IMG/VR virus record: IMGVR_UViG_2537561934_000015
DNA length: 29,584 nucleotides
Reading direction: 5' to 3' (one strand)
Source of the DNA: a virus
Taxonomy: Duplodnaviria; Heunggongvirae; Uroviricota; Caudoviricetes
Positions 540 to 26,498 of the stretch are shown in pieces; the stretch's first letter is position 1, and each line of letters begins with the position of its first letter. The notes beneath the pieces are model-generated. The model ran no database searches, had not been told where the DNA came from, and saw nothing but the letters and a program-made list of their open reading frames with translations. Both the position numbers and the translations under genes were made by a program.

Positions 540-566
540 CAAACACCCTTCACGGGTGTTTTTTCA
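540..566 (+). terminator. Rho-independent terminator after parR
   Basis: Stem aaACACCC (540-548), loop TTCAC, stem GGGTGTtt, followed by a T-run at 560-565, 5 nt after the parR stop. Confidence 0.6.
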
Positions 567-574
567 TGTTTACC

Positions 575-667
575 CTAATAATCGATCTGTTAAACAGATA
601 GATATTGATTTATCTATCGATTAAAACGATCAATACCCTTGACAGTTGTATGGGATTTTGTAGGATC
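575..667 (+). promoter_or_regulatory. Palindrome cluster (operator-like) plus sigma70-like promoter
   Basis: Perfect 7-bp inverted repeat ATCTGTT-A-AACAGAT, then ATAGATA...TATCTAT and recurring ATCGAT. TTGACA at 639-644, then a 16-17 nt spacer and TAGGAT at 661-666, read toward the small ORFs downstream. Confidence 0.4.
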
Positions 668-844
668 GATCACGATATGACCACTTTGTTTGTGTGTCAT
701 GCATAGGAAAACGCCCCAATAGCGGTAACTATTGGGGCGCCAAAGAAATCGAGGTGTCATCTACCTCTTGAGCTCGCCGGAATCGTATTTTCTGCGTGTG
801 CCCATGTAAAGGTGAACACCTCATTTTATTGAGGTAAATCAAAT

Positions 845-1123
845 ATGGGTATAAAGATTTGTAAAAACTCCCACCGATACAACCCCCAATACTCACACCT
901 TCCCGATAACCAGGGACAGACAGGCCGCCACCGCTGCGCTGCCTGCGCATACGAGCTTGGTGTACTTCACGCAATGATCGGTATTCCTAAAGCTAAAGAT
1001 GATTCCTTCCTGGCAAATATTCCATATAGCCAGGCTGGCACAGTCAGACATAAAGACGCCTTTGAGGCATACATGCTTGGGTACGACTATGCAATGAGCA
1101 GCGCACTGCTCAAAGCTGCATAA
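845..1123 (+). CDS. Hypothetical small protein (92 aa), accessory
   Basis: ORF with GAGG about 9 nt upstream of the ATG. A hairpin CCACCTC-N13-GAGGTGG lies at about 1142-1168 after the stop. No family recognised. Confidence 0.4.
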   Translation: MGIKICKNSHRYNPQYSHLPDNQGQTGRHRCAACAYELGVLHAMIGIPKAKDDSFLANIPYSQAGTVRHKDAFEAYMLGYDYAMSSALLKAA

Positions 1124-1189
1124 CGATTTCTGCTTTTTCACCACCTCAACAATAGTTGGAGAGGTGGTTCTTCTGAAAAGGATAATCAA

Positions 1190-1477
1190 ATGACCGATAT
1201 TAAAAGAAGCGATTTATTTTATGACGATTACAGTTGGACTGCTTTGCCAGGAGATGATCCCACGAAAACCGCTGCTGACCGCCATCGGTTTAGCCGCAAA
1301 GAGGGTTATGAAGTACTAAATATGCTTAATTCCTTTAAGGCATACTCCCTGAAAGAGAAACTCATTGTCGAATGGATGATTCACGAACACTTACCATCAG
1401 GTATTCAGGGAAGGGAAAATGTTAAAGACTGGATTAAACAAAACTTCCTCAAATTCAAGTTAATTTATCCACGCTGA
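1190..1477 (+). CDS. Hypothetical small protein (95 aa), accessory
   Basis: ORF starting ATG 1190, same strand as parMR and the preceding ORF. No recognisable motif. Confidence 0.45.
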   Translation: MTDIKRSDLFYDDYSWTALPGDDPTKTAADRHRFSRKEGYEVLNMLNSFKAYSLKEKLIVEWMIHEHLPSGIQGRENVKDWIKQNFLKFKLIYPR

Positions 1478-1773
1478 CTGAATATCAGAGAATGAAACCC
1501 TGAACGGGCGCACAAACGAAACGAGCGTGCCATGCCCGACGCACATACAAAGGCGGAGATGCACTCTCCGCCTCATAGTGGTTAACGCATTTAGAAAACA
1601 TCAAATTTGTCAAACAATCTTTCATATTAACCCCTCCAGATTCAAGCACACTCTGGGATTGTTGTTAGCTAGTCACTGGGATTTTGCGTTTATAGTTTCA
1701 CCTCGCCCAATCCACTGAAATTTTTAGTCAACTCAAGCTAACGCGCGTGTTAAATATATGCTCATTTTCAAAC

Positions 1774-1800
1774 TGCACAATAGTGCACAAACTTGCACAA
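1774..1800. repeat. Three direct TGCACAA repeats with 10-bp phasing
   Basis: TGCACAA at 1774-1780, 1784-1790 and 1794-1800. Nearby are GGATCCGT twice (about 1844-1862) and the palindrome AAAAAAACGCGTTTTTT (about 1869-1886). Confidence 0.5.
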
Positions 1801-2224
1801 TTTTTTTGAACGCCTTTTTGCCCTTCCGGCCCGCGTGGCGGCTGGATCCGTCAAGGATCCGTGCGTGCACAAAAAAACGCGTTTTTTCTGCGCGCAGGTG
1901 ACGGGGGAACAGCCCGCGTTTCAGAGGGTAAATAGCATCCCCTGAACGATGTCGCAGCGACACAACAGAATGGCTGTATTTCTCACGCTGAGCGTGAAAA
2001 AGACGTGAGGGCTTTTGATTTGATGGGGTGGAAAATAAGGCCGTCAAAATCGCACTGAGGCGGCGAGAACATGCAGTCAGCGCAGTGGGATTGCGTAAGA
2101 GTCTGACCATCGATGATGGCAATAAGCAGGAAAGCGTCGTGAAATTATCTGATTGATACAGGAGCTGGAGAGTCGGGGCATAAATTTTTTATGCCCCGGC
2201 GAAGCAGCAGACAAGCGAAGCGCG

Positions 2225-3271
2225 TCAGGATGTGGGCTGGGTGTCTAACAGTGCGTAAGGGTTAAAGCGGATCACCTCTTCGCCAAGCCAGTCATTGATG
2301 TGCTTCATGGCCTCCATGACGGGCATCAGCTCGTTAATTGCGTAAACCCGCGCGGCCTTCTCCACATCACCAAACGCACTTTTTTCACCCGGCATCGCCC
2401 CCATCAGTTGCGGCGGAACGCGGTGCGCAGCCAGCACATCATCACGGGATGCCGCCTTAACATTCATGAACTCATCCTTTGCGGTGATCTGCTGGAACGG
2501 CAAAATTTGCACCCCCTCTTTACCCCCGTTAGGCGCATGAATGAGCACGTTTTTAAACGCACCACCACCACGCGCACCCTGTAGCGTTTCTTTCAGGGAG
2601 TCCATGCTTTCGCGGTTTACCTGCGCTGCGCCGATGTAGATGATGCACCCGGCGTGGGATCCGTTGTCGTAATACAGTTTTCTGAACATGTCCGCCGAAT
2701 GAGACAGGCTGGCCGAGAGTAATGCGCCGAGATATTCCGGCATGCCGTAGATTTCCTGGTTAATGTCCGGATTCATCAGGTGGCACACTTTGCCAGGGCG
2801 AAACTGGAACGCGTCCTTGCCATCCTGCACATACCACCATGATTCAAGATCGCTTCCGCGTCGCATGTATTTCGCCAGGGCGTGCCGTAATTTAAGCGGT
2901 TCACCGAGCATATTGCTTCGAAGCTCAAGGAATGCGTTACCGAACACAAACCAGTCCAGCGCCAGCGCCGAGAAATCCTGCCGGGAAAGCAGCGGGTGCG
3001 GAATATAGCAACCGAGCAATACATTGCGCTTAAAGTAAAGCGCAGACTGATGCCAGGACGTTTGCCGGGCAGCTCTTGCCAGACCGTACCAGTCCACCGG
3101 GGTTTCATACCACCGCCCGTTATCAGCACAGTACATATTGTCCAGCAGGTCATGCCCGGTCAGGCGATAAGGACCATCAAATGTGAATGCACTGAGCGAT
3201 GATTCTTTCCTGAGCGCATCAGCGAGATCAATGCGTGAACTCATGCGCACTTTTTTATTTTTTCTGCTCAT
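2225..3271 (-). CDS. Q: Portal protein (P2 gpQ-like)
   Basis: 348-aa ORF on the minus strand, directly downstream of the terminase gene as in P2. Length and position fit gpQ (about 344 aa). Confidence 0.85.
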   Translation of the reverse strand: MSRKNKKVRMSSRIDLADALRKESSLSAFTFDGPYRLTGHDLLDNMYCADNGRWYETPVDWYGLARAARQTSWHQSALYFKRNVLLGCYIPHPLLSRQDFSALALDWFVFGNAFLELRSNMLGEPLKLRHALAKYMRRGSDLESWWYVQDGKDAFQFRPGKVCHLMNPDINQEIYGMPEYLGALLSASLSHSADMFRKLYYDNGSHAGCIIYIGAAQVNRESMDSLKETLQGARGGGAFKNVLIHAPNGGKEGVQILPFQQITAKDEFMNVKAASRDDVLAAHRVPPQLMGAMPGEKSAFGDVEKAARVYAINELMPVMEAMKHINDWLGEEVIRFNPYALLDTQPTS

Positions 3272-6014: not shown

Positions 6015-6037
6015 TAAGACAAAGGAGCAAATTTTTT

Positions 6038-8732: not shown

Positions 8733-8734
8733 CA

Positions 8735-9851: not shown

Positions 9852-10002
9852 TACTCCCACATGGGGAAATCTCGGTATATGGGGCGACCGCCTTCTGGAT
9901 GCACTGGAAACCTGTAACGCGGATAAACGGGCCATTGAATTACTGGAACAGCGCAGACTGCAACGACTGAACAACGAGGACAACAACCATGCTGAAAACT
10001 GA
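9712..10002 (+). CDS. Rz1-like outer-membrane lipoprotein spanin, overlapping the inner spanin in another frame
   Basis: MNAPTLCLTLVLLTGC carries a lipobox (LTGC), followed by a proline-rich body. Nested or overlapping spanin architecture. An alternative GTG start lies at 9682. Confidence 0.65.
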   Translation: MNAPTLCLTLVLLTGCAGTQNAPRPAPSVRLIPQTLTIPVMPPPFPDTPTWGNLGIWGDRLLDALETCNADKRAIELLEQRRLQRLNNEDNNHAEN

Positions 10003-11084: not shown

Positions 11085-11662
11085 GCGCAGAACTCATGCG
11101 ACTGCTGAGCAACATCATCCGCACCGGGATCATCTCTGAAGTTGATGAGAAGTCCTGGCGCGTGCGCGTTCGCAGCGGCGAACTGGAAACAGGCTGGCTG
11201 CGCTGGAACACCACGCGCGCGGGAGCCTTCAATGTGTGGCTGCCGCCATCACCAGGCGAACAGGTGGTAATTGCCTGCATTGGCGGCAACCCGGAAACCG
11301 CCATGATAATTGGCAGTCTGTGGAGTGATGCCAGTCCGGCACCCGGCAAAAGCCTGAAAGAAATCGTGATCAGCGCGCCGGATGGCGCGGTGTTCCGCTA
11401 CGACGCAGACGCAGGCGCACTGAGCGCCAGCGGCATGAAAACAGCCACCCTGCAGGCATCCGTCAGCGTGACACTGGACACGCCCGTCGTGGAATGCACA
11501 GACCTTCTGAGAACGGCGACGCTTGACGTCACAAAAGGGGGAAAGATGAGCGGCAATATCACGCACAGCGGCGGCAATTTCACCTCAAACGGCATCACAG
11601 TGCATACGCATAAGCACGGTGGCGTTAAAGGTGGCAGCGATTCGACAGGAGGCCCGCAGTGA
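11081..11662 (+). CDS. V: Baseplate spike/assembly protein (P2 gpV-like)
   Basis: 193-aa ORF overlapping the S stop, in the gpV position. Confidence 0.8.
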   Translation: MSAELMRLLSNIIRTGIISEVDEKSWRVRVRSGELETGWLRWNTTRAGAFNVWLPPSPGEQVVIACIGGNPETAMIIGSLWSDASPAPGKSLKEIVISAPDGAVFRYDADAGALSASGMKTATLQASVSVTLDTPVVECTDLLRTATLDVTKGGKMSGNITHSGGNFTSNGITVHTHKHGGVKGGSDSTGGPQ

Positions 11663-12009
11663 CAACCCGCTACACAGGAATGAACCCGGACGGGACGGGA
11701 AACCTGAACGATATGGAGCACCTGAAACAGTCAGTCAGGGATATCCTGACCACCCCGCTGGCAAGCCGGGTTATGCGACGGGAATATGGCAGCCTTGTGC
11801 CTGATTTGATTGACGAACCCATGAATAACACCACGCGTCTGCAATGCATGAGTGCTGCCGTGATTGCACTGACACGATGGGAACCCCGCATTGCCCTGGA
11901 CGCCATCGACGTTGTCTGGAAGGCAGGAGGCCGCGCCGGGGTGACGCTGTCGGGCACTGTCATGCAGACCATGCAGAATGTTGAATTAACCATCACGCTG
12001 AGGGAGTAA
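11659..12009 (+). CDS. W: Baseplate wedge protein (P2 gpW-like, gp25 family)
   Basis: 116-aa ORF, the size of gpW (115 aa), with GTG start overlapping the V stop. Confidence 0.8.
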   Translation: MTTRYTGMNPDGTGNLNDMEHLKQSVRDILTTPLASRVMRREYGSLVPDLIDEPMNNTTRLQCMSAAVIALTRWEPRIALDAIDVVWKAGGRAGVTLSGTVMQTMQNVELTITLRE

Positions 12010-12012
12010 ATC

Positions 12013-12909
12013 ATGCCCGCCGTTGACCTTTCCCAGTTACCGGAACCCGCCATCATCGCGGAGCCTGACTTTGAAGCAATTCTGGCTGACACAAAGGCCA
12101 TGATGATTGCGGCTTATCCCGCCGAACAGCGTGAAGCCGTCTCCGCCGCGCTGGAGCTGGAATCGGAACCCCTGAACGTTATCGCCCAGACAACAGCGTT
12201 TCGTGAAATGCTGTTACGCCAGCGGGTCAATGAGGGTGCACGCGCCTGCATGTTAAGCCACAGCGCCGGGACAGACCTGGACAACCTCGCGGGCAATATG
12301 AACACAAAGCGCCTGACCATCACTCCGGCAACGGATACCACCGACGCGGTGATGGAGAGCGACACCTCGCTGAGACTGCGGGCGCAGCGGGCGTACGACG
12401 GCCTGAGTGTTGCTGGCCCGTCAGGTGCATACGAGTATTTTGCCCGCAGCGCCAGCGGTCTGGTGCGTGATGCGCGGGCTATCAGTCCGTCTCCGGCCAA
12501 TGTGACGGTTTCCATCCTGTCCACTGAAGGCGACGGCACAGCAACGGAGGCGTTGCTTAATACCGTTCGCGCCGTTCTGAATGCAGAGGATACCCGCCCG
12601 GTGGCCGACCGCCTGACCGTACAGAGCGCCAGAATCGTGACATGGCGGCTGAATGCAAAACTGTACTTTTACCCCGGCCCGGAATCCGAACCTATTCTGG
12701 CCGCGGCTGAATCGTCGTTCAGGAAGTGGCTGGCTGAGCAGGGGCTTATCGGTCAGGACGTGGCGCTGTCCGCCATTGCTGCCGCACTTCATGTGCACGG
12801 TGTGCAACGCGTGGAGATAATCGAACCCACACAGAATATGGCCATCAGCGACATACAGGCGGCGCGCTGTGAGTCATTTACCATCAGCGAAGGTGGGCGC
12901 AATGAGTAA
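12013..12909 (+). CDS. J: Baseplate protein (P2 gpJ-like)
   Basis: 298-aa ORF, gpJ size (302 aa) and position. Confidence 0.85.
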   Translation: MPAVDLSQLPEPAIIAEPDFEAILADTKAMMIAAYPAEQREAVSAALELESEPLNVIAQTTAFREMLLRQRVNEGARACMLSHSAGTDLDNLAGNMNTKRLTITPATDTTDAVMESDTSLRLRAQRAYDGLSVAGPSGAYEYFARSASGLVRDARAISPSPANVTVSILSTEGDGTATEALLNTVRAVLNAEDTRPVADRLTVQSARIVTWRLNAKLYFYPGPESEPILAAAESSFRKWLAEQGLIGQDVALSAIAAALHVHGVQRVEIIEPTQNMAISDIQAARCESFTISEGGRNE

Positions 12910-13432
12910 TTCACTGTTACCGCCATCAGCCAGCAGTTTCATGCGTTGTGCCGAAGCCGTCGGAACACGCATTACAGACATTCCGGTAGACCTCAACACG
13001 CTGTGGTCGCCGGACACCTGCCCGGTGCATCTGCTGCCTTATCTCGCCTGGGCATTTTCCGTTGACCGCTGGGATCGCAACTGGCCGGAAGAGACAAAGC
13101 GACAGGTTATTCGTGATGCATGGCTGATACACCGACACAAAGGGACCATCAGCGCACTGCGCAGGGCCATTGAACCACTGGGATACCTCATTCGCGTGTC
13201 TGAGTGGTGGGAGTTCGGAGGAGAACCGGGAACATTTACCGTTGAAGTCGGCACGCTGGACAGTGGCGTGACGGAGGAAATGTATCTGGAAATGGAGCGG
13301 TTGATTGCTGATGCCCGCCCGGTCAGCCGCCACATGACAGGGCTGAATATCATTCAGGAGATCCCGGGGGATATTTTCGCGGCGGCAGCAACTTACGACG
13401 GTGAAGTCATTACCATTTATCCGGGCGATTAA
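12902..13432 (+). CDS. I: Baseplate protein (P2 gpI-like)
   Basis: ATG 12902 overlaps the J end and gives 176 aa, the gpI size. Confidence 0.8.
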   Translation: MSNSLLPPSASSFMRCAEAVGTRITDIPVDLNTLWSPDTCPVHLLPYLAWAFSVDRWDRNWPEETKRQVIRDAWLIHRHKGTISALRRAIEPLGYLIRVSEWWEFGGEPGTFTVEVGTLDSGVTEEMYLEMERLIADARPVSRHMTGLNIIQEIPGDIFAAAATYDGEVITIYPGD

Positions 13433-13434
13433 GC

Positions 13435-15258
13435 ATGAGTACCACAACACGAAAATTTAAAACCGTTATCACCGATACGGGTGCAAAAAAATTAGCTCAG
13501 GCAGCCGCGCCAGATGGTAAGCCTGTCCGCCTGACTCATATGGCCGTGGGCGACGGTGGCGGCACGTTGCCCACACCAGACAGTAAGCAGACCCGTCTGG
13601 TGCATGAGGTGTGGCGACACACTGTTAATCGCGTCATCCTGGACGCAACACATCAGAACCGCATTATTGCGGAGCTGGTTATTCCTCCTGAAACGGGCGG
13701 ATTCTGGATCCGGGAAATTGGTGTATTTGATGAGCACGGCGATTTGATCGCGGTGGGCAATACTGCGGAAAGTTACAAGCCAGCCGTTGCCGAAGGATCC
13801 GGACGTGCACAAACATTTCGCACCATTCTGACCGTATCCAGCACTGCCACCGTGGCGCTTACCGTGGATAACACCATGGTGATGGCCACAGTGGATTACG
13901 TGAATGACAAACTGAAAGAACATGAACAGTCACGACGTCACCCGGACGCCTCGCTGACCGCAAAAGGCTTTGTTCAACTCAGTAGCGCCACTAACAGCAC
14001 GTCTGAAACGCAGGCTGCAACGCCGAAAGCAGTAAAAGCCGCGTATGACCTGGCTAACGCAAAATATACCGCTCAGGACGCCACGACGGCACGAAAAGGG
14101 ATAGTCCAGCTCAGTAGTGCCACCAACAGCACGTCTGAAACGCTGGCCGCGACACCGAAAGCGGTTAAGGTGGTAATGGATGAAACGAACAAGAAAGCGC
14201 CCTTAAACAGCCCGGCGCTGACCGGAACGCCAACAACACCAACTGCGCGACAGGGAACGAATAATACCCAAATCGCAAGCACGGCTTATGTGATGGCCGC
14301 GATTGCCGCACTTGTAGACTCGTCGCCTGACGCACTGAATACGTTGAACGAGTTAGCGGCGGCGCTGGGCAACGACCCGAATTTTGCGACCACCATGACT
14401 AACGCGCTTGCGGGTAAGCAACCGAAAGATGCCACCCTGACGGCGCTGGCCGGGCTTGCTACTGCAGCAGACAGGTTTCCGTATTTTACGGGGAATGATG
14501 TTGCCAGCCTGGCAACCCTGACAAAAGTCGGGCGGGATATTCTTGCAAAATCGACCATTGCCGCCGTTATCGAATACCTCGGTTTACAGGAAACTGTAAA
14601 ATTAGCTTCGGAAGCGTTATCAACATATGGCGGGGTGGTTAACGGTGATGTGATTATCAAGGGCATTCTCTCGTTAATTGGGAATGAATTACTTATTGAA
14701 AAAGATAATGGCTTTTCTGGTATTCACATCAGAAACAAGAGCACGGTTGCAGGGAGTGCAAATGGAGTCGACTTTTCATTTGGCGGTGCGATTATGTCGT
14801 CTCTCATTTGTGGAATAATGGAAAATGGCGCGAACTACATAGACGTTGCATTGTCTCCGGCAGGCAATATTTCTGACCGTCGTCTGCTTGCATTTACTTT
14901 GGATGGAAATATCAGGCAGTTAATTCCCCGGAATGGATGGAGCATTCAGGGATATACAAAAAACAGTGATTTTACCCAGGCGATGGCTGATGCTGGTTGG
15001 GTACGTTTTCCAAATGGCATCATTTTTCAATGGTGTTGGGGGAATACTGATGCCAGTGGCTGGGCACCTGCCCCGTTTCCTGTTGGCTGGCCTGTTCGTT
15101 GCTTTGGTTTGTTAGCCTGTAATGTTGCTGGTGACTCGATAGCAAGTGCAATTGCGGGTGTTAAAAGATTAAATGATCGCGATATGCAGGTCACGTTAAT
15201 GGAAAGGTCTGGGGGTGCTGTTTCTAAACCATTCTTCTGTATTGGTGTGGGGTGTTAA
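13435..15258 (+). CDS. H: Tail fibre protein (P2 gpH-like), current C-terminal variant
   Basis: 607-aa ORF. Has a conserved N-terminal part and tandem fibre repeats (QLSSATNSTSET..AATPKAVK twice). The C-terminal third lies inside the invertible segment. Confidence 0.9.
   Translation: MSTTTRKFKTVITDTGAKKLAQAAAPDGKPVRLTHMAVGDGGGTLPTPDSKQTRLVHEVWRHTVNRVILDATHQNRIIAELVIPPETGGFWIREIGVFDEHGDLIAVGNTAESYKPAVAEGSGRAQTFRTILTVSSTATVALTVDNTMVMATVDYVNDKLKEHEQSRRHPDASLTAKGFVQLSSATNSTSETQAATPKAVKAAYDLANAKYTAQDATTARKGIVQLSSATNSTSETLAATPKAVKVVMDETNKKAPLNSPALTGTPTTPTARQGTNNTQIASTAYVMAAIAALVDSSPDALNTLNELAAALGNDPNFATTMTNALAGKQPKDATLTALAGLATAADRFPYFTGNDVASLATLTKVGRDILAKSTIAAVIEYLGLQETVKLASEALSTYGGVVNGDVIIKGILSLIGNELLIEKDNGFSGIHIRNKSTVAGSANGVDFSFGGAIMSSLICGIMENGANYIDVALSPAGNISDRRLLAFTLDGNIRQLIPRNGWSIQGYTKNSDFTQAMADAGWVRFPNGIIFQWCWGNTDASGWAPAPFPVGWPVRCFGLLACNVAGDSIASAIAGVKRLNDRDMQVTLMERSGGAVSKPFFCIGVGC
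14564..14594. repeat. Left gix-like recombination site (inside H)
   Basis: The reverse complement of 14576-14594 equals 17344-17362 exactly (GTTTCCTGTAAACCGAGGT, 19 bp). Flanks extend to about 31 bp with 3 mismatches. Lies within H codons ...EYLGLQETV.... Confidence 0.85.
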
Positions 15259-15863: not shown

Positions 15864-16304
15864 TCATTCTGGTTGTTCGGGGAATGTTACCGGCAGGCTG
15901 GAGGTGTCTGTGGATTCGACTTTCTGCGCATAGAGCATCCACTCGGTTAATTTTTGTTTATTCTCGTCGGAAATGACGCCCAGCTGTAGCTGAGAGTCCC
16001 ACAGCTGGGTTTTATCCCTGACGAGCTGCAGCAGGCTCTGCTTTTCATTTTCCGCTTGTTGCCTTTGCTCCTCCTCGGTATAAGTTCGCTTTACCACTAC
16101 GCCATCTTTGAACATCCATTTACCCGAAATGTCAGCACGGCGATTTGCTGTAATATCAGGTAATTCAACGACGCTTGCGCCTTCCGGATTAATTGCTGAA
16201 ACATCCTTTTCAATACAAATAATAACGCCGTTATGGTCATAGACCATTTTCAACGTATCAGGCCGGAAATTCTTTTGTTCCTCATACCAGTTTTTTCCCA
16301 TCAT
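15864..16304 (-). CDS. Alternative tail fibre assembly chaperone (tfa')
   Basis: 146-aa ORF on the minus strand inside the invertible segment, convergent with tfa. Same size class as tfa and in the Mu U' position; similarity to tfa was not checked. Confidence 0.7.
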
Positions 16305-16400
16305 CTGAATAAAGCCATTTGATGTTAAATTGCTTTGTTAGCTGGTATTGCTCTTTTGTTTTAGGATTGCCAGCAGTAATGTTTTTTAAGTGCATCATAA

Positions 16401-17363
16401 TTAAATACTCCCCGCGTTATACCACGTTCCATTAATGCAATACTGAACTGGCCTTGCCTGTGTTGTATCAATTAATTCATCACGGTTTCCGTTAACTGAA
16501 CCCGTAACGACATAACCTGACCTGTCAGACCAGCCGGGACCATTCCATGTCTGAACAGATGACAGACCGCCCAGACGAATACCTGTAATAAACTTTGAGT
16601 TACATTCCGCTTTGGTATATGCACCAACATCTCCCGCAGAGGGCTTGCGGGTCGTGGTGTAAAACTCTGACCAGTTAGCCTCAAATCCATAACCATCACG
16701 CGCTGAACGATAAAAAATACCGCCATTCCTGTAATTCACGCGGAACTGTACGGCAGGGCAACTCCCCGTATTCATATTGAAGTGGAGGATTAATGCTGTT
16801 GCGCCATTGATATCTGCGTTATAAACCCCGCTATTCCAGTTCCAGCCAACAGCTTTATCATTTGCAACCCTGCTTCCTGTTTGCCCTAAAGCAAATGCAG
16901 GCTGCTGGTTTTTCGTGTTGTAGTCTCGTCGCCAGCCAGGAGCATAAGCATCACCATGATTAATATAGGTGAATTGAGCGTTAGTAATTCCGCCGCCGCT
17001 GGACGTGCTCGGCGTGGTAACGCGTATGGTCATTGCGCCGCGAGTGCCAATAACTTCCACCACAGCACCTGCAAGACAAATATTTCCGCAACCTGTATCT
17101 GTAATGACCTTATTATTTGCATAAGCCCATGAGCCTTTGCACATCCAGTAAGGATGGTTAAATGCCCCCTGACTCTCCAGCCACGAAATGAATTGTGCGG
17201 TTGTCCAGGCCTGACTATCGCCACCAATATTCAGCCCTGCACTATATGCGCGGCAGGCCCCAATATTTTTGGTGAAGGTATCTTTTCCCGGAATATCTGC
17301 GCCGTTCTGGTTTTTTTGTAATGCTCCAGAAGCCTGATTTACCGTTTCCTGTAAACCGAGGTT
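16401..17363 (-). CDS. Alternative tail fibre C-terminal cassette (start-less; expressed after inversion by fusion to the H N-terminal part)
   Basis: The minus-strand frame is open from 17363 (a stop lies just upstream) down to the stop at 16401. It begins [16 protein letters not shown]..., matching the H junction ...EYLGLQETVKLASEALS. No start codon at the 5' end, as expected for an Sv'-type cassette. The six-frame track shows only the internal Met at 17144. Confidence 0.8.
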
Positions 17364-17374
17364 TTAGATAATGG
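17344..17374. repeat. Right gix-like recombination site
   Basis: GTTTCCTGTAAACCGAGGTTTTAGATAA, close to the recalled Mu gix sequence (TTCCTGTAAACCGAGGTTTTGGATAA). Lies about 50 bp upstream of the invertase start. Confidence 0.85.
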
Positions 17375-17425
17375 TCGATTTTGGCACGCATGGCATGATT
17401 GGCGCTTTTAAACAGGAGATCCAGA

Positions 17426-18016
17426 GTGCTGATTGGCTATGTAAGGGTATCAACAAATGACCAGAATACAGACCTGCAACGAAACGCTCTTGTTTGTGCA
17501 GGATGTGAACAAATATTTGAAGATAAATTAAGCGGGACAAAGACAGACCGACCGGGATTAAAACGCGCTTTAAAGCGCCTTCAACAAGGTGACACGCTGG
17601 TTGTCTGGAAACTGGATCGCCTCGGGCGAAGCATGAAACATCTGATTTCTCTCGTCGGGGAACTACGGGAGCGAGGGATTAATTTTCGCAGTCTGACCGA
17701 CAGCATAGATACATCTTCTCCAATGGGGCGTTTTTTCTTCCACGTGATGGGTGCCCTGGCTGAAATGGAACGTGAATTAATTGTAGAGCGTACACTGGCC
17801 GGTCTGGCAGCAGCACGCGCACAAGGACGCACAGGCGGACGTCGCCCGAAGCTGACAAAAGAACAGAATGAGCAAATAGCAAGGCTGATTAAAAACGGGC
17901 ACGACAGAAAACAACTGGCAATAATTTACGGCATTGGTACATCGACGATTTATCGTTACCACCCCGCAGGAGAATCAAGCGGAACAATTGAGAAGAGTAA
18001 ACAAAATAACCGCTAA
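17426..18016 (+). CDS. Serine DNA invertase, Gin/Pin/Cin/Hin family
   Basis: From GTG 17426 (AGGAG 7 nt upstream) the protein reads (M)LIGYVRVSTNDQNTDLQRNAL...VVWKLDRLGRSMKHL..., near-identical to the recalled Gin/Pin N-terminus with the catalytic Ser in VRVST. The six-frame track start at 17399 is upstream of the likely start. Confidence 0.9.
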   Translation: MLIGYVRVSTNDQNTDLQRNALVCAGCEQIFEDKLSGTKTDRPGLKRALKRLQQGDTLVVWKLDRLGRSMKHLISLVGELRERGINFRSLTDSIDTSSPMGRFFFHVMGALAEMERELIVERTLAGLAAARAQGRTGGRRPKLTKEQNEQIARLIKNGHDRKQLAIIYGIGTSTIYRYHPAGESSGTIEKSKQNNR

Positions 18017-18039
18017 TCTGGCCATTAGCGGTTTTTGTG
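18009..18039. terminator. Bidirectional terminator between the convergent invertase and U genes
   Basis: ACCGCTAAT-CTGGCC-ATTAGCGGT followed by TTTTTGTG on the plus strand and by a T-rich run on the minus strand. Confidence 0.6.
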
Positions 18040-18044
18040 TTAAA

Positions 18045-18539
18045 TCAGAACAGCCCTTTAACTGAACTGGCCGCGCTGTTAAGAGATGATGTCACTTTAT
18101 CTTTGAAGCCGGACAGCATATCGCTGAACGATGAGGATTGCAGACGCTCCCGCAAATCCTCATCACAGCGTTCAAGGGTCAGTGAAAACTCTATCTTTTT
18201 CGCCTTGCCGTAGCGATCAAACTCAGAACGGGTCGTATTCGTTTCAGTCAGTACATACATGCCGTAAATCTGCCCGACGCCATCAATCAGAGGCCAGGGG
18301 CGTCCTGTATATGCCTGCGTGGTCAGCAGCGACAGCGACACTTCGCCACCTGTAATTTCAGGATAAAGCACGCCTGAAAGCACGATGCGATCATCACCTG
18401 CACCGATATACTGCCAGCTTGCTGAACGGTTAACGCGTTCATTTTTCACATGCCGCCAGCTTTTGTTTTGCTGTAACTGCTGATGCGGCAATGTGCGCAG
18501 CTCAAAAACAAACATGCCGTAGATCATCATCATGGCCAT
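18045..18539 (-). CDS. U: Tail protein (P2 gpU-like)
   Basis: 164-aa minus-strand ORF immediately downstream of T in the reading direction. gpU size is about 159 aa. Confidence 0.8.
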   Translation of the reverse strand: MAMMMIYGMFVFELRTLPHQQLQQNKSWRHVKNERVNRSASWQYIGAGDDRIVLSGVLYPEITGGEVSLSLLTTQAYTGRPWPLIDGVGQIYGMYVLTETNTTRSEFDRYGKAKKIEFSLTLERCDEDLRERLQSSSFSDMLSGFKDKVTSSLNSAASSVKGLF

Positions 18540-18545
18540 GACTCC

Positions 18546-21272
18546 TCAGTCTTTATCGTAAAAACTGCCACGCCCGGCACGGGCGCGCCGTTCCATTTCT
18601 GCCCTGACCATTTCGCCAACCAGTTTCGCCAGTTCGCGGGGATTCTGTGTAACAACGTTATGCAGATGAACATGAATTTCACCGCCAAATCCGGAGGCAA
18701 CAGGCTCCCGGTTACGGGAAGTTGCAGGAACTGATGCCACTGGCGATCGTATAGCCTCCGCCACCGGGCGGGAGCTGGCCGCAACAACAGGGACCAGCGC
18801 CGGAGGCAGCGGAGCCGGAACCACGGGTGTGATAGTAATTGCGGGGGCAGGCTTACTGACCTGCGCAATCTTCCGCTCCTGCCACTCCCCACGAACAGCA
18901 AGTGCGCGGGGCAGGTTCTTAAAGACAATATCGCCGGGGCCAATGAGTTTTTTCGTCTCATCAACCAGCTTACCTGTGTTATCAGCAATTTTGCTGAGTC
19001 TGCGTAGCGTACCGGTATTGTTGTCTGTGAGCGGTTTGTTGTCTCTGGGTTTATCGCCTTTTTTGTCGTCGACCTTATCTGACGGGGCCGGGCCGGGAGT
19101 CCATGGTTTCTGAACCATTTTCTTGAGAACCGGATCCCATTCCCACAATACAGGAGCCTTTGAAGCGTTCTCTATTTTCTTTCTCGCCCGCTCCGCTTCA
19201 TCCGGAAGCACTCCGAGCTTTTCAAGTATCCACGCCAGTGAATCCATCAATGCTTTTGTTGGCGTCAGGACAAGCTCTATCGCTCCACCGAGTACCCTGC
19301 CGAATACCTCGCCAGCACTGGTACATTTATCCAGCGTTTCCTTGCTGGACTCCATCGGTGACAGCAGCGATTTAAACCAGTTAAAGACCTGAATAATCCC
19401 ATCGCGCACGACATCAAAAACTGGACCGAACCGTTCAAAGGTTTCGCGCAACGGAGCCAGCCGTTCCATAATCCCACTGAACACCCCTGCATAAAACGCC
19501 TTGATGGGTTCCCAGTATTTCCAGATGAGAACCGCCGCAGCCACAAACGCAGCAGCAATCAATCCGACCGGGCTGAGCAGCGCCCCGATAGCGCCCCCCA
19601 GTAACGAAACGGAACCCGTCACCATTCCCCATAGTGCTGGCAGGAGCCTGACAGCATTCATTGATCCGGTCAGGAGGGAAAAGCCAAGACGCAGTTTTGC
19701 CAGCGGGCCAGCAAGCACACCAATAGCCAGCGACAACGAGCCAACCGTTGCAGTCATTGCCAGCAACGCACCGCCTGCTATCAGTAGCTGGCGCGTCAGT
19801 GTCGGATGGGCCTGCGCCAGCGCCGTCACCTTCGATACCACCCGCGTGAGCCACTGCGTGACAGAACGCAGCGGACCGTCAATCAGATCTGCAATGCGGA
19901 TGCGCAACCCTTCCCATGCACTGCCGAGTGATTTCAGATCGCCGTCAAGGTTGTTGGCCATAACCTTTGCCGTGCGTTCAGCCTCACCGCGTGCGCCTTC
20001 AAGTTCTTTTCTCAGTTTAGGTAAGGATCCGTCACCTGCCGCATCAACGAGGGCCATAAATGATGTGAAAGCCTCTTCTCCGGCAATGTCCTTAAAGAAC
20101 GATACCCGATCAACTTCTCCGTATTTGCGGGTGGCTTTATAAAGGTCAGTCAGCAGATCTTCCATCGGGCGCATTTTGCCCCCGGCATCCGAGACAGACA
20201 CGCCCAGCTCTTTCAGCGCCTCTGCTGCCGCCTTTGGCGGTGATGCCAGACGAGCCAGGCTGGCACGCATTGCCGTCCCGGCATCACTTCCCCTGATACC
20301 CATATTCGCCAGCACGCCCGCCATCGCTGCGGCCTGCTCCAGCGATATTCCCAGCTTACCCGCCACCGGACCTGCATATTTCATGGTTTCGCCCAGTGCG
20401 CGAAGGTCAGTGTTGGTACGGGTAAACGCTGCAGTGAGTGTGTCACCGACCCGGTCCATCTGGTCAGCAGAAAGGCCGAACTGCGTCAGGATATTTGAGC
20501 CAATATCCGCCGTCTCGCCGAGATCCATACCGCCAGCCGTTGCCATGCTCAACACGCCGGGAAGCGCAGCCTGAATGGCCTGCGGTGTGAAGCCAGCCAT
20601 TGCAAGAAATGCCTGCCCACTGGCGGCATCGCCTGCGGTGAACTGCGTTTCAGAGCCAAGTTTTAACGCCTGCTCACGCAGCGCCTTAAACTGCGGGCTG
20701 TTCTGGTCGATTCGCGTCAGCGCCTGAACGCGGGACATCTCTTTCCCGAACCCGATCGCAGGCTGCAAAAAACGCCCGGCAGCATAGCCGCCCGCCGCTG
20801 CCGCACCTGTTGCCAGTGCACCACCTGTTTTCAGTTTTCCCGCGGTTTCCTGCGCGCGCGAATACCGCTCACGCGCCCGCGTTACACGCGCAAGCGCCTG
20901 CCGTTCGCGTTCAAGCTGGTTGTTGTACTGTTCGGTGCGTCTGATGGCCTGCTGGATGGTGTTATCACTGCCTGTCAGGGAAATGCCGTGGCGTTTCAGC
21001 TCTCCGCCAAGCTCCCGCATTTTCTGAATCTCCCGTGTGCGCGATTCATTCAGGCGTTCAAGCCGGGTGCTTAACTGCTGCATCAGCTTTTGTTGTTTTT
21101 CGCTGAGCACTGTACCCGTGCGTTGTAACTGATTAAGGGCGTTAAGCTGGCGTCGCGCTTTCAATATGCCAGCATCCGCTTTACTGACAGCGTCACGGGC
21201 GCGCTCAAATGAACGCGCCTGACGCTCGAGATTTTTTGATCGCCCCCTGCGTTCGCTGGATGGAGTCACCAA
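18546..21272 (-). CDS. T: Tail tape measure protein (P2 gpT-like)
   Basis: 908-aa ORF with coiled-coil-rich N-terminal part (QLERERQALARV...), Ala/Gly-rich central segments and hydrophobic stretches, positioned after E/E'. Confidence 0.9.
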   Translation of the reverse strand: MVTPSSERRGRSKNLERQARSFERARDAVSKADAGILKARRQLNALNQLQRTGTVLSEKQQKLMQQLSTRLERLNESRTREIQKMRELGGELKRHGISLTGSDNTIQQAIRRTEQYNNQLERERQALARVTRARERYSRAQETAGKLKTGGALATGAAAAGGYAAGRFLQPAIGFGKEMSRVQALTRIDQNSPQFKALREQALKLGSETQFTAGDAASGQAFLAMAGFTPQAIQAALPGVLSMATAGGMDLGETADIGSNILTQFGLSADQMDRVGDTLTAAFTRTNTDLRALGETMKYAGPVAGKLGISLEQAAAMAGVLANMGIRGSDAGTAMRASLARLASPPKAAAEALKELGVSVSDAGGKMRPMEDLLTDLYKATRKYGEVDRVSFFKDIAGEEAFTSFMALVDAAGDGSLPKLRKELEGARGEAERTAKVMANNLDGDLKSLGSAWEGLRIRIADLIDGPLRSVTQWLTRVVSKVTALAQAHPTLTRQLLIAGGALLAMTATVGSLSLAIGVLAGPLAKLRLGFSLLTGSMNAVRLLPALWGMVTGSVSLLGGAIGALLSPVGLIAAAFVAAAVLIWKYWEPIKAFYAGVFSGIMERLAPLRETFERFGPVFDVVRDGIIQVFNWFKSLLSPMESSKETLDKCTSAGEVFGRVLGGAIELVLTPTKALMDSLAWILEKLGVLPDEAERARKKIENASKAPVLWEWDPVLKKMVQKPWTPGPAPSDKVDDKKGDKPRDNKPLTDNNTGTLRRLSKIADNTGKLVDETKKLIGPGDIVFKNLPRALAVRGEWQERKIAQVSKPAPAITITPVVPAPLPPALVPVVAASSRPVAEAIRSPVASVPATSRNREPVASGFGGEIHVHLHNVVTQNPRELAKLVGEMVRAEMERRARAGRGSFYDKD

Positions 21273-21346
21273 ACTGCCCCATCAGGCGGCGGGCGTTTTC
21301 GGCAGGCCGGGTCAGCCTGTCAACGGCGCTGAAAGCGACCCGGATA

Positions 21347-21885
21347 TCAAGAGTCTTCATTGTCTGCATTCCCGCTGCGAAGTGCCGCCCGCTCACGCCA
21401 GCTAACCACTTCGCCGGGCGTCATCATGAAGATTTCGGCGGGCGACCAGTTAAAAATGGCGGCAATATCCGCCACCAGATCTTCGATGTGCTCAAAGCAC
21501 ACCAGGGTGATTACGCTGCCGTCTCCTGCACGCTCTTCGCGCCAGAGTCTGGCTCGCTCATAAAATTTACAGCCACAGCGCACAACTGAATAAAATCGCG
21601 TGACGACATTTTTTTAATCATCACTTCATCCAGTCGTGGCGAGGTCACGCGAGGCAACAGCGTGAACATGGTATCCGCTTTCAGATTCAGCACATCAGAC
21701 AGCGACAGACCACGCAGGGATCCAGCCTGCTCAATAGCCCCGGTGATCTCCACATACGTGATTTTTTCGCCACCACGCTCAATTGGTCGGGTCAGTTTTA
21801 CGCCACGTTCGACAGCCATATCCTCACCTGCCGTCACATCATCCGCCACGGTGTTATTCCGGGTTTCAGTATTGATGTTTTTCAT
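21347..21885 (-). CDS. Tail assembly chaperone frameshift product (gpE+E'-like), made by programmed -1 frameshift near 21562-21568
   Basis: The minus strand reads GTA AAT TTT ATG in the E frame, giving the X_XXY_YYZ heptamer A_AAT_TTT. The -1 frame is open from 21613 to 21347 and overlaps the last 17 codons of E. Confidence 0.6.
21511..21885 (-). CDS. E: Tail assembly chaperone (P2 gpE-like)
   Basis: 124-aa ORF with AAGGAG ribosome-binding site, between the tube gene and T. An overlapping -1 frame continues to 21347. Confidence 0.75.
   Translation of the reverse strand: MKNINTETRNNTVADDVTAGEDMAVERGVKLTRPIERGGEKITYVEITGAIEQAGSLRGLSLSDVLNLKADTMFTLLPRVTSPRLDEVMIKKMSSRDFIQLCAVAVNFMSEPDSGAKSVQETAA
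21562..21568 (-). promoter_or_regulatory. Candidate -1 ribosomal slippery heptamer AAATTTT
   Basis: Only canonical slippery heptamer in phase with E inside the E / -1 frame overlap. An A7 run at 21609-21615 is an alternative shift site. Confidence 0.5.
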
Positions 21886-21940
21886 CAGTTGTCTCCTTTT
21901 CAGTCAGAGGCGACGCACCGCGCCGCCTGCATATTACTTA

Positions 21941-22453
21941 TCAGCCAAGCCCGAGTGCGGAACGAATGCGGTCAGGCACAATGTCCTTGCCGTCCTTCCG
22001 GTAGATGTGGTTCAACAGGTCGATTTCCCACAGCGGGCGATCGTTAACGCTCAGCTTGTAGTAGGTGTTTTTGACAGCGTAAGTGTGTGATGTGGCTTCG
22101 CCCTGCTTGGCTTCCCCCATATCAATTTCCGTCACACGCCCGCGCATCTCGATTTCATACAGATCGCTTTCTGCATCGGTGTAGTATTCACCCGCAAAAC
22201 GCAGTAGCGTGTCGTCAATCGTGCCGCCATACTTCAGGAACAGCTCACGAACTGCGCCCCCCATGACAAAGCTCGCATCAAGCGCGGAGTCGTCCAGACC
22301 GAGATCAATACTTACCGCACCCATCATGCCACCACCCCGGTAGCTGTCGGTTTTGCGCGTCAGCTTAGGCAGAGTGACGGACGTCACCTTACCCACTTCG
22401 TTTTCACCATCCACAAACAGCGTAAAAAAGCGAAGATGTTTTGGTACAGCCAT
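21941..22453 (-). CDS. FII: Tail tube protein (P2 gpFII-like)
   Basis: 170-aa ORF, gpFII size (172 aa), directly after the sheath gene. Confidence 0.85.
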   Translation of the reverse strand: MAVPKHLRFFTLFVDGENEVGKVTSVTLPKLTRKTDSYRGGGMMGAVSIDLGLDDSALDASFVMGGAVRELFLKYGGTIDDTLLRFAGEYYTDAESDLYEIEMRGRVTEIDMGEAKQGEATSHTYAVKNTYYKLSVNDRPLWEIDLLNHIYRKDGKDIVPDRIRSALGLG

Positions 22454-23637
22454 CAGGCACCTCCCAGCACCGCAAATGCGGGACCAAAGAATTCATCGGT
22501 AAACGTCTGGTAAAGCTCCATGTCTTCCAGTGGCGGAACGGGCGTATATTTGTAGCGAATACGCACACGCCCCTGACGTAAATCCGTGGTGCCGTTATCC
22601 ACCACGTCATACCAGCACGACGCCCCAATCAGTTTCCCGGCTGTCACCAGCGAATCCAGTTTTGCCCTGACGGCACTGATAACATCTTTCACGTTCGCAG
22701 GCGTCAGTGGACTGTCGATGGTTTCAAACTGCGCTTCCGCAATTGAATCAGCCAGCACCTGTGCGGTTCGGGTATACACCTCAAAGATGTAGGCGTTCGT
22801 TTCCGGTGTGCGGTTGCCCCAGAAGCGGAACCCATTGCGACGAATAATGGTCGTGATTTCTTTGTTATTGAGGCTGTTGGCATCACTGTCTTCGGCCTGC
22901 AACGACCAGAACACATGCCTGGACATTCCCAGCACATTTTTAACCGGAACGTTGGACAGCGATTTGTGCCAGCCCTGCTCATGGTCAATGTACGCACGAA
23001 GGCCGCACGCATAAGCAGGCGCGGGGAACGTTTCGTTTTCGCCACTTTTCGGGTTGTAGGCGATGAAGTCCGGCCATAAGAGCATCACTTCACGTTCGTT
23101 GAATTTCTGGCGGTAGGTAATCGCCTCAGCCATCGTGTTACTGCCGTGACATGAGGCATACACAAACGCGCGCAGCTTACCCGCAATCACGCACAGGGAT
23201 TTTGTCACCGCCTCCGTGTCCAGCTCCGGCGCGGCCAGAATACGCGGACGGTATCCGATGCTTTCATCCTGCTCTGCAACAAGCAGCGCATACATCCCCG
23301 TATAGCTGCCGTCAGATTCAGAACCACCGATAACCAGTTGATCCTGCGTCTTACCGCCTTCTTCTTTGTGTTCAGCCACGCGAACGACGATCACCTTTGT
23401 GCTCACCTGGTCTGCGATGGCCTTAAGCGCACGATAAAGCGTCCCCGTTGTCCCGCATTTTCCCAGCACGTCATTGACGCGGGTCAGCAGTGTGGGCTTG
23501 TTCAGCGGGAACAGCTCCGCATCCGCATCATCCGCCGTTGCCACGATACCGATAACGCTGGAATCAACATCATTAATCGCTGTTACCAGGTCGGTACTTT
23601 CCGTGACACGGGCACCATGAAAACGAGTTTCACTCAT
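22453..23637 (-). CDS. FI: Contractile tail sheath protein (P2 gpFI-like)
   Basis: 394-aa ORF. Motifs FPLNKP, KLRAF, YRQ.F..RE, GWHK.LSNV, RR.GFRFWGNRT, YTRTAQV and YKYTPVPPLE match recalled gpFI. Confidence 0.9.
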   Translation of the reverse strand: MSETRFHGARVTESTDLVTAINDVDSSVIGIVATADDADAELFPLNKPTLLTRVNDVLGKCGTTGTLYRALKAIADQVSTKVIVVRVAEHKEEGGKTQDQLVIGGSESDGSYTGMYALLVAEQDESIGYRPRILAAPELDTEAVTKSLCVIAGKLRAFVYASCHGSNTMAEAITYRQKFNEREVMLLWPDFIAYNPKSGENETFPAPAYACGLRAYIDHEQGWHKSLSNVPVKNVLGMSRHVFWSLQAEDSDANSLNNKEITTIIRRNGFRFWGNRTPETNAYIFEVYTRTAQVLADSIAEAQFETIDSPLTPANVKDVISAVRAKLDSLVTAGKLIGASCWYDVVDNGTTDLRQGRVRIRYKYTPVPPLEDMELYQTFTDEFFGPAFAVLGGA

Positions 23638-23793
23638 AGCTTCAGCCCCTTGTATCCGTTAAATGATTCGGCAACAATCATCACCCACCACGCGCGTAAT
23701 CTCACCCCTGCGCCGTTCTCCCGCCACGGCGACAACAAAAAGCAGTAACCCCCTCCGCACGCACATGCGACCATGCCGCACAGGGAGGGAAAG

Positions 23794-24903
23794 ATGACCG
23801 ACACCACCATGCAATTGCTCAGTCAGAGCACAGACCCCGTGAAAATGCCGGATTTTGATATTCTCGCGGAGGGGGAAACGCTGTCCGGTCGTGGCAGAGC
23901 GCCTGATGAGTCTGTCACTGACCGACAACCGGGATTTGAAGCGGTACCAGCTCACCATCACGCTGGATGATGCGGATGGTCAGTTGCAGCTACCGCCACG
24001 GGGCGCGCGCCTGACGGTTCTCATTGGCTGGAAAGGAGAACCGCTGACAGAAAAAGGCACTTACATTGTTGATGAAATCGCTCACGAAGGACCGCCGGAC
24101 AGGCTGACGGTTTCAGCCAGAAGCGCAGATTTTCGGGATGAATTTAACGTTAAACGTGAGGTGTCCTGGCATGATGTGACCGTTGAGCGCGTGGTATCCG
24201 CCATCGCTCATCGGTATGGTCTGAAACCGCAAATCAGCGAAATGCTGATGGATATCGAAATCGACCACGCCGACCAGACCGAAGAAAGCGACATGTCCTT
24301 CCTTACGCGCATGGCGGAAATGCTGGGCGCAATCACTACGGTAAAAAGCGGTAATCTGTTATTCATCATGCCAGGTGGTGGCGTGAACGCACTGGGCCAG
24401 CCGTTGCCATCGTTCGCCATCACACGCAGCAGCGGCGATCGCCATCAGTTCCGCATTGCTGACCGCGAAGCGTATACGGGGGTACGCGCTTACTGGCTTG
24501 ATCTTAATTACGGGAAAAGAAAAAAGTCAGCGTGAAACGCCGCAAACCGCCAAAACCCAAAAAGGAGAAAAGCAGCAGCCGTGAAGGTGATTATATGGAA
24601 GGCGCAGAAGGCAATGTGTTTGTGTTACGCAAGACTTATCAGAACGAGCAGGCAGCAAGACGCGCAGCGGCGGCAAAATGGCAGCAGCTACAACGCGGAG
24701 CCGCATCATTCTCCATCACGCTGGCGCGTGGACACGCAGAACTCTATCCCGAAATGCATGGCACGGTGAAAGGCTTCAAAAGTGACATCGACAATCAGGA
24801 CTGGATTATTGCAAAAGCTGAGCACACCATTGATAACAGCGGCTTTACCACGCAGCTTGAGCTTGAGGCAAAAATCCCGGAATGGATAGCAGAAACAGAG
24901 TGA
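23794..24903 (+). pseudogene. D: Tail/baseplate hub gene D (P2 gpD-like), split over three frame segments
   Basis: Frame 1 from ATG 23794 (ribosome-binding site AGGGAGGGA) reads MTDTTMQLLSQSTDPVKMPDFDILAEGETLSGR and then goes out of frame. Frame 2 (open 23843-24535) carries the central part VAERLMSLSLTDNRD...YWLDLNYGKRKK. Frame 1 again (open 24508-24903) carries the C-terminus ...EGNVFVLRKTYQ...WQQLQRGAASFS...GFKSDIDNQDWII...GFTTQLELE. The frame changes lie near 23880-23895 and 24510-24530. Confidence 0.75.
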
Positions 24904-25023
24904 GCAACTTAGACATATTAGCTCAAACTTAAACTGGCAAGTTTACAGTATAGAATTAAACATAAACGACGGTCCGCTCCGTGTCAGAAGCGGACTTTGT
25001 CATCCCTATGTAAGGTTGATTGC

Positions 25024-26046
25024 TTAATACGCATTTAATTTAAATTTGTATTTGCCTTCTATGTAATGGATAAATTCAATTATGCTTTTTTCTATCGCAT
25101 CTAATATATGAATATATCCATCCCGATTTAAGGTCCTATCCAACTCAAAGTGATGAACTATCCCATGTCTATATTGTATGATTTCAGAAATTCGATTCTC
25201 AAGAAAATCAACTGATTTTCCAATTCTTTTTTTCTTATAAAGAATCGCTCTCACATCTATATCCAGCCACTCTTTATATGCTTTGTTTAGGTGGGTTAAG
25301 TTTTGAAAAGTGTAATTTCTTGCAATAACACTTTCTATTGAAATATTTCCTTTCTCTATCTCAAGCAGAATATCAAAATCAACTTTTTGCTTATACGATG
25401 TTCTTTTTGCTATTGCGAAAGGATCGTACTTTATAAGTATTTGAAAAGCTCTAGAGAAAAAGTATTCAAACATAGCAACCGCAAAAGGTACTAATCCATT
25501 ATATATAACTCTACTGGGATCCATACATTGCATGTAATCAAAGTATTCGGATAAGCCGCCATCTTCCGGTAGGTTTAATTTAATAGAAGGTTCAGGTAAG
25601 GCATGTTTAACAGCGGAAATCTCATGATGGACATGATTAAATATTGAAGAAATGCCACGACTGATCGGACTACTAGAATCCTTCCATAGAGGAGCGTACC
25701 TATTTTTCCCATAATCACCTATAAGTGTTCCACCAAAAAGACTCCTTGCGCCTTTTAGAACATCATTAAGCATTTTTACATCATGCCAACTAGCGCTATA
25801 TAAATTACGCACATGCAATGCCCATTTATTACCAGATATGTGTAATTCGTCATTTGAAACAGGATATATATCAGCCGAAACTCCATCTGTAGATTTGAAG
25901 TCCGTATCATCAAACCAAGAGTAATTCAACGTTCCTTGGGGCCATTCCCACAAATGTTTACACCTTTTAAAACCTAAATTTTCAAGGTAATTTTTAAGTT
26001 CGTTTCTAGTTGCTTTTTTAGGGTACAGCGTTATATCTCTTCCCAT
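25024..26046 (-). CDS. Hypothetical 340-aa protein, AT-rich cargo gene inserted between D and ogr; C-terminal HEPN-like R-x4-H motif
   Basis: Long ORF with AGGTGA ribosome-binding site, visibly AT-rich against GC-rich structural genes, and on the opposite strand to its neighbours. C-terminal region ...ENRISEIIQYRHGIVHHFELD... contains R-x4-H. Confidence 0.7.
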   Translation of the reverse strand: MGRDITLYPKKATRNELKNYLENLGFKRCKHLWEWPQGTLNYSWFDDTDFKSTDGVSADIYPVSNDELHISGNKWALHVRNLYSASWHDVKMLNDVLKGARSLFGGTLIGDYGKNRYAPLWKDSSSPISRGISSIFNHVHHEISAVKHALPEPSIKLNLPEDGGLSEYFDYMQCMDPSRVIYNGLVPFAVAMFEYFFSRAFQILIKYDPFAIAKRTSYKQKVDFDILLEIEKGNISIESVIARNYTFQNLTHLNKAYKEWLDIDVRAILYKKKRIGKSVDFLENRISEIIQYRHGIVHHFELDRTLNRDGYIHILDAIEKSIIEFIHYIEGKYKFKLNAY

Positions 26047-26237: not shown

Positions 26238-26498
26238 ATGTTCCGTTGTCCACTTTGTGGCGCATCTGCCCGTATCCGCACTAGTCGTCCGGAAAATGAT
26301 TCAAACACTGTGCGGCAAAAGTATTACCAATGTAACAACCTAGAATGCGGCGTATGCTTCTCAACACTGGAAGCTTTCCATAAATTCACATCGAAACACG
26401 CCTCCGGCGCTCACTCTTCAGAAGGTATCCCGTGGCATGAACTGCCAGCTTCACACAAAGGAAACAATCAGATGAGTTTGCCCTTACCTCAAAATTAA
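26238..26498 (+). CDS. ogr: Ogr/Delta-type zinc-finger late transcription activator
   Basis: MFRCPLCGASARIRTSR...YYQCNNLECGVCF matches recalled P2 Ogr (MFHCPLC...ARTSR...YHQCQNVNCSATF). Ribosome-binding site AAGGGAGG. Confidence 0.85.
   Translation: MFRCPLCGASARIRTSRPENDSNTVRQKYYQCNNLECGVCFSTLEAFHKFTSKHASGAHSSEGIPWHELPASHKGNNQMSLPLPQN

Follow-up and report, generated by a model that had tools for sequence, protein, structure and literature searches.

Six clustered single-base indels in the tail genes of a P88-like Escherichia coli prophage, four of them in the gpD-type hub gene, are probably consensus errors of one draft assembly

INTRODUCTION

The hub that lies between the tube initiator gpU and the spike protein gpV in phage P2 is built from three gpD copies (bioRxiv 10.64898/2026.09.14.750843). 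The closest described relatives of the locus studied here are the P88-like phages and prophages of E. coli, namely, Xuanwuvirus P88 and P88_4B11, Gemsvirus 500465-2, and the prophages of E. coli 720632 and GCA_029360095.1. P88 itself is reported to have been induced as a viable phage (PMC5285337). In P88, the sheath, tube, E, T, and U genes lie on one strand and D on the other, and this opposite-strand tail block is the normal layout for the P88 group.

Here, we examined a window of 29,584 nucleotides, i.e., the whole stretch of DNA analyzed, which shares 95-99% DNA identity with these phages and prophages and has the same gene order and strands. A sequence-only reading of this window, made before any alignment, had proposed that its D gene is broken, that the tail module is inverted, and that the prophage is likely defective. 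We compared the window with related phages, prophages, and genome collections and weighed what the breaks in D most probably represent.

RESULTS

The window holds the late region of a P88-type prophage

The window corresponds to bases 1-29584 of AQEW01000013.1, a contig of the 2013 draft assembly GCA_000354735.2, and the loci drawn from this source record are 100% identical to it at the same coordinates. It is the late region of a P2-family, P88-type E. coli prophage (Peduoviridae), and the contig begins within the prophage. Partition genes, cargo, and the portal and terminase genes occupy the left part, followed by the head, lysis, and baseplate genes, the tail fiber, and, in the middle, an invertible fiber segment with a Cin/Gin-like recombinase. 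Further to the right, the minus strand carries U, T, E/E′, tube, and sheath and the plus strand carries D, and the right end contains a 340-aa cargo ORF, ogr, and hok, with the host zinc-ribbon, tagO, and flk genes beyond them. Synteny was assessed by tblastn of the 38 annotated proteins of the related locus L007 against the window, together with the annotations of relatives, and the order recovered was Q-P / O-N-M-L-X-lysis-R-S-V-W-J-I-H-tfa / invertase / U-T-E-FII-FI (opposite strand) / D-ogr. The coordinates of the features discussed below are collected in Table 1.

The D region shares 95-97% DNA identity and its layout with deposited genomes of phages (P88, P88_4B11, 500465-2, and others), and D of the window sits, as in P88-type elements, between the sheath-tube-E-T-U block and ogr. 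The opposite-strand tail block, which the sequence-only reading had taken as a sign of damage, is shared by P88 and by all the records of related phages and prophages that we examined, and that argument for a defective element falls away. Several E. coli genomes carry the same insertion beside the zinc-ribbon, tagO, and flk genes, and the loci L027-L033 encode a tail fiber protein identical to that of the window.

The accessory parts of the element vary among relatives. Two small hypothetical ORFs (845-1123 and 1190-1477) in the variable cargo region have no Pfam or PADLOC match; in related prophages, DUF3800 or DUF4760 genes are found at this spot. The 340-aa cargo ORF between D and ogr is present in phage 500465-2 and missing in P88 and in strain 720632. 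It is very widespread (4172 index blocks), gives a weak, sub-threshold match to HEPN_RiboL-PSP (22.5 bits versus a cut-off of 28.4) and no PADLOC match, and is possibly an accessory or defense gene. The invertible fiber segment lies in the orientation opposite to that of strain 720632, in which an IS600 element interrupts the tfa gene.

Table 1. Features of the window, with the positions of the six indels (positions are those of the window; strand given where reported)
Feature	Position	Strand	Remarks
Variable cargo region	540..2225		between partition gene and portal gene
Invertible tail-fiber segment	14546..17374		
Tail-fiber assembly gene (tfa)	15864..16398	-	in the invertible segment; T5 to T6 at 16291-16296; 177 aa when repaired
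Alternative fiber allele	16401..17144		unique to source record
Recombinase gene	17426..18007		adjoins the invertible segment
Tape measure gene T	18546..21360	-	T5 to T6 at plus-strand 21232-21237; frameshift near codon 42
Tail sheath gene (FI-like)	22453..23637	-	intact; private Cys166 to Ser (23142)
Gene D (P2 gpD-type baseplate hub, PF05954)	23794..24903	+	1110 nt; four 1-nt indels
First ORF in D	23794..23970	+	frame 1; 58 aa
Second ORF in D	23855..24535	+	frame 2
Third ORF in D	24532..24903	+	frame 1
Inserted T, GTCCGG(T)CGTGG	23889	+	outside a homopolymer; true reading moves from frame 1 to frame 2
G3 run, G4 in all relatives (-1)	23931..23933	+	placed by alignment with intact alleles
Inserted T, GCGG(T)ACC	23945	+	15 nt downstream of the lost G
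A4 run, A5 in all relatives (-1)	24515..24518	+	true reading returns to frame 1
340-aa cargo ORF between D and ogr	25024..26046	-	intact; separate from D
ogr/Delta-type late-gene activator	26238..26498	+	intact; right end of the late region

Gene D differs from an intact allele by four single-base indels

In P88-type elements, D is a single uninterrupted ORF of about 366-369 aa. The D gene of the window has the same length as its intact homologues (1110 nt), with an ATG start directly preceded by GGGAGGG and a TGA stop at 24901-24903, and it can be read only by joining three ORFs in frames 1, 2, and 1, as the sequence-only reading had described. Frame 1 stops at 23968-23970, and the deposited pieces are 58, 209/226, and 123 aa long. 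Alignment with intact gpD homologues, which that reading had suggested as a check, placed four single-base indels where two frame changes had been counted. The first of them had been taken for a 2-nt loss and is in fact a 1-nt insertion, a T that follows GG. The lost G and the second inserted T compensate each other, and in the frame-2 reading they turn GFEAD into DLKRY. The last break does fall in the A-rich run to which it had been assigned, where A5 is shortened to A4.

Reversal of the four indels gives a 369-aa product, and the DNA of this repaired D is identical at 1110 of 1110 positions to that of L028 (GCA_029360095.1), the closest relative of the tail region, which leaves four indels and no substitutions between the two. 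The deposited sequence cannot encode this 369-aa hub protein. With 62.2 bits against PF05954 (Pfam gathering cut-off, 30.1), the repaired protein belongs to this family, while the deposited 226-aa and 123-aa pieces score 30.1 bits (at the cut-off) and 28.1 bits (below it), respectively. The repaired protein is also similar in sequence to the structurally solved R2 pyocin hub 6u5h_C (E = 8.6e-41, residues 18-356).

Other records show different peculiarities at D. In the RefSeq annotations of many genomes (L004, L005, L006, L007, and L016), PGAP sets the start of D 309 nt into the open 369-aa ORF, which yields a 266-aa protein, and also places a 93-nt antisense "hypothetical protein" pseudo-CDS; this is an annotation quirk and corresponds to no lesion. 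Two IMG/VR loci, L085 and L139, carry an insertion of about 1.2 kb in D at approximately residue 90. In L009 (positions 1-2488, from a second assembly with an adjacent NCBI accession, GCA_000354595.1), only the last ~400 nt of D are left, and a group II intron lies directly upstream (Rfam RF02005 at 604-846, 103 bits), with a 443-aa RT ORF and a domain-V-like hairpin. The junction falls at window 24505/24506, 9 nt before the A run, and the IMG/VR locus L133 looks similar. A link between this intron junction and the A-run deletion of the window was considered and found to be unsupported, since L009 has the wild-type A5 and its 5′ flank is not D.

The tape measure gene and one tail-fiber assembly gene are also frameshifted

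The lesions are not confined to D. In the tblastn comparison with the 38 L007 proteins, frame breaks were found in exactly three genes, namely, D, T, and one tail-fiber assembly gene, the latter two each having gained one base. Residues 1-42 and 38-935 of T matched in different frames, and the T product is 51 aa long as deposited and 937 aa long when repaired, so that no intact tape measure can be made from the deposited sequence. Essential morphogenetic genes thus carry inactivating lesions in the sequence, in that D, T, and tfa are all truncated as deposited. More than 30 other genes are free of frame-breaking single-base indels, and all other phage and host genes in the window are intact.

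The tail sheath gene is open and differs from its relatives in another way. Its codon 166 encodes Ser, where 18 of 18 compared relatives have Cys, and the resulting protein is unique to the source assembly. This change is either a private mutation or another base-call error in the same stretch.

The indel alleles are private to the source record

To compare alleles, we took in about 140-150 related loci. The six indel alleles were found in no loci but those taken from the source contig, and the wild-type alleles occurred in 9-144 other loci. Exact-pattern scans of IMG/VR, GTDB species genomes, and JGI metagenomes gave no match to the mutant patterns. At the level of individual sites, the inserted T at 23889, the G3 run, and the inserted T at 23945 were each absent from IMG/VR; the paired loss of G and gain of T (23931-23945) had no match in metagenome or genome collections; and the A4 pattern (24515-24518) had none in IMG/VR and metagenomes. 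The wild-type A-run pattern is carried by at least 120 IMG/VR contigs.

None of the indel alleles was present in 5,426 complete E. coli genomes, in which the best match to D is the intact allele of strain 720632 (99.5%), separated from the D of the window by four indels and two synonymous changes. Among 120 D homologues from IMG/VR, 106 are full length in a single frame, and the other 14 are cut by a contig end, trimmed at an end, interrupted by a 1.2-kb insertion, or truncated; a 1-nt frameshift in D was seen in none of the 120.

No assembly other than the source has the exact 58-aa and 209-aa D fragments on record, and the Cys166Ser sheath allele and a 247-aa fiber segment are likewise unique to the source record. 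Exact look-ups with the D fragments, the 340-aa cargo ORF, the 607-aa fiber, the sheath, and the 247-aa fiber segment retrieved no second assembly of the strain, Logan included; a look-up with flk did not recover the source contig. A literature search on the WGS and assembly accessions returned no paper.

The indels are concentrated in the tail genes and outnumber private substitutions

All six indels lie within 8.2 kb (16.3-24.5 kb), the four in D within 630 nt, and three of these within 57 nt. The presence of four of the six in D, which accounts for 1.1 kb of the ~31 kb compared, has a probability of ~2e-5 under a uniform model. Four of the six are homopolymer changes of one base, and the remaining two are a T directly after GG.

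The distribution of differences along the window is uneven in the same sense. Against the prophage of E. coli 720632, positions 1772-14619 show 110 mismatches and no indels, and positions 17319-24913 show 60 mismatches and five 1-nt indels. Across the head, lysis, and baseplate genes (12.8 kb), no indel separates the window from the related elements, and ~19 kb around the affected stretch are free of frame-breaking single-base indels. On the host side (source contig to 34535), 6073 nt of flanking DNA are identical to other E. coli except for the loss of one CCATT unit in yfcJ. This MFS gene lies outside the window (source contig ~30293, L010 16388), and the loss of one unit of a tandem pair splits it into 238 + 170 aa; the lesion looks like a genuine slipped-strand deletion. 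In the left 3.6 kb, compared with a closest relative of 97.6% identity, only two homopolymer length differences were observed, both of them non-coding (564, T6 versus T7; 1877, A7 versus A6); these could be natural or errors.

In E. coli mutation accumulation, indels are about one-tenth as frequent as substitutions. Positions 18549-24975 of the window differ from L028 by six mismatches, of which only those at 19577 and 23142 are absent from all compared relatives, and by five private 1-nt indels. If indels are assumed to arise at ~1/10 the rate of substitutions, the probability of at least five indels among seven private events is ~1e-4. This estimate of the error rate is limited to the interval 18.5-25 kb, as the list of private substitutions, which draws on few relatives, is otherwise dominated by mosaic segments.

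DISCUSSION

We favor the view that the breaks in D are sequencing or assembly consensus errors in a locally poor stretch of one draft assembly and give this explanation a probability of about 0.7. In that case, six single-base length errors would have been written into an 8-kb tail stretch, four of them in D, and the real prophage would probably carry an intact 369-aa D, an intact 937-aa T, and an intact 177-aa assembly gene, as its nearest relatives do. The lesions are present in the sequence as deposited and private to this record, and their removal restores exact identity to an intact allele; we infer that they originated in sequencing or assembly and not in the cell. Consensus error fits better than decay because D differs from an intact relative by indels with no substitutions, because the lesions are clustered, and because they are found in one draft assembly only. 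Variants that are private to one assembly, restricted to indels, clustered, and revertible to an existing allele are what an artefact would be expected to leave. A low-quality patch is further favored by the excess of indels over substitutions, by the three lesions within 57 nt, and by the types of change involved. In flow-based sequencing with a TACG order, the T flow follows G, and the profile of one-base homopolymer changes and T after GG is compatible with such sequencing or with a poor consensus.

Several considerations count against consensus error. Frameshifts are a common route of prophage decay in E. coli, and a plausible real lesion, that in yfcJ, lies on this contig too; in addition, the collections searched contain no independent assembly of the strain, and hence no direct sight of an intact D in this isolate. 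Moreover, the patch of low quality has to be assumed to be local, since the neighboring sequence is clean and the assembly is not generally error-prone.

The strongest alternative is that the indels are real and represent a very recent, strain-private decay of the tail module, in which D, T, and one tfa gene were inactivated, leaving a cryptic prophage without tails. We regard this as unlikely, although several observations speak for it: the lesions truncate all three products, the clean flanks give no obvious sign of a poor assembly, and relatives have other natural lesions in D (the insertion in L085 and L139, the truncation in L009). The strain may also hold real pseudogenes, given that the contig starts inside the prophage and that yfcJ has lost a 5-nt repeat. 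Decay of this kind would nevertheless have placed four lesions in one gene where a single one suffices, without any substitution, three of them within 57 nt and two of the insertions outside repeats. It would further imply an indel-to-substitution ratio far above that expected for spontaneous mutation and alleles that none of the other genome, virus, or metagenome records searched contains.

A variant of this idea would attribute real indels to one localized mutagenic episode, such as error-prone repair synthesis or the copying of an error-laden patch. Such an episode would account for both the clustering and the absence of substitutions, and six events of one base in 8 kb, three of them in 57 nt, are indeed unexpected from independent spontaneous mutations. 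We know of no mechanism, however, by which mostly +1 T insertions would arise in the absence of base substitutions, the clustering has a simpler explanation in a poor read or consensus patch, and there is no sign of a donor, the mutant k-mers being present in none of ~150 related loci. The chance that an episode of this type produced the indels appears very slight. It would be a speculative and highly improbable reading, if a little less so, that the prophage is pristine except for its tail module, where real indels record a localized burst of frameshift mutagenesis, for instance through error-prone synthesis while a break in the prophage was being repaired, with the hub, tape measure, and fiber chaperone lost at once. 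Gene conversion of the 23889-23945 patch from a paralogous D was rejected on the same k-mer result.

P2-type tail modules have one programmed frameshift, in E/E+E′. That D is likewise expressed at full length by functional recoding, through programmed ribosomal frameshifting or transcriptional slippage at A/T runs, can practically be dismissed: one break does lie within GGGAAAAGAAAAAAG, but recoding would take four shifts, of which two fall at non-slippery sites, frame 1 meets a stop at 23968-23970, and the two-frame arrangement is not conserved, every homologue examined (106 full-length IMG/VR sequences, all phage records, and the close prophages) being a single open frame.

The defective prophage proposed by the sequence-only reading survives in part. 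At face value, a prophage with these bases could not build tails, and the deposited sequence indeed cannot encode the hub or the tape measure; the conclusion that the prophage is defective depends on the deposited bases being correct, and consensus error fits them better than decay does. If the breaks are artefacts, they are not a real biological feature, and the case calls for caution: private, indel-only, exactly reverting frameshifts in one draft should not count as prophage inactivation. If they are real, the element is one more cryptic P2-like E. coli prophage, a well-known phenomenon. The biological significance is small either way. Nor should the opposite-strand tail block of P88-type phages be taken as a rearrangement.

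The changes resemble the homopolymer and flow-adjacent indel errors of draft assemblies, in that T5, G4, and A5 runs have gained or lost one base and a T is called after GG, and in that they are clustered, private to one assembly, and unaccompanied by substitutions; they differ from them in that the neighboring sequence is clean, and their attribution to such errors is accordingly put here as probable. Were the lesions real, the element would resemble cryptic P2-like E. coli prophages, with several essential tail genes inactivated in an otherwise complete late region. Such prophages typically show deletions, IS insertions, and substitutions, as exemplified by IS600 in tfa of strain 720632 and the 1.2-kb insertions in D of L085 and L139, whereas the lesions of the window are all 1-nt indels and the background around them is that of an intact relative, without difference. 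Like P2 gpD and other PF05954 proteins, D is related to the R2 pyocin hub 6u5h_C and to the N-terminal region of VgrG, and it differs from P2 gpD in that, as deposited, it is not one ORF. Compared with the P88-like phages and prophages, the window is set apart by the six single-base indels that are private to it, located in tfa, T, and D, and by the private Cys166Ser change in the sheath. The element is a standard P88-like member of the Peduoviridae with a standard gpD, and its sole oddity is the indel cluster in the record.
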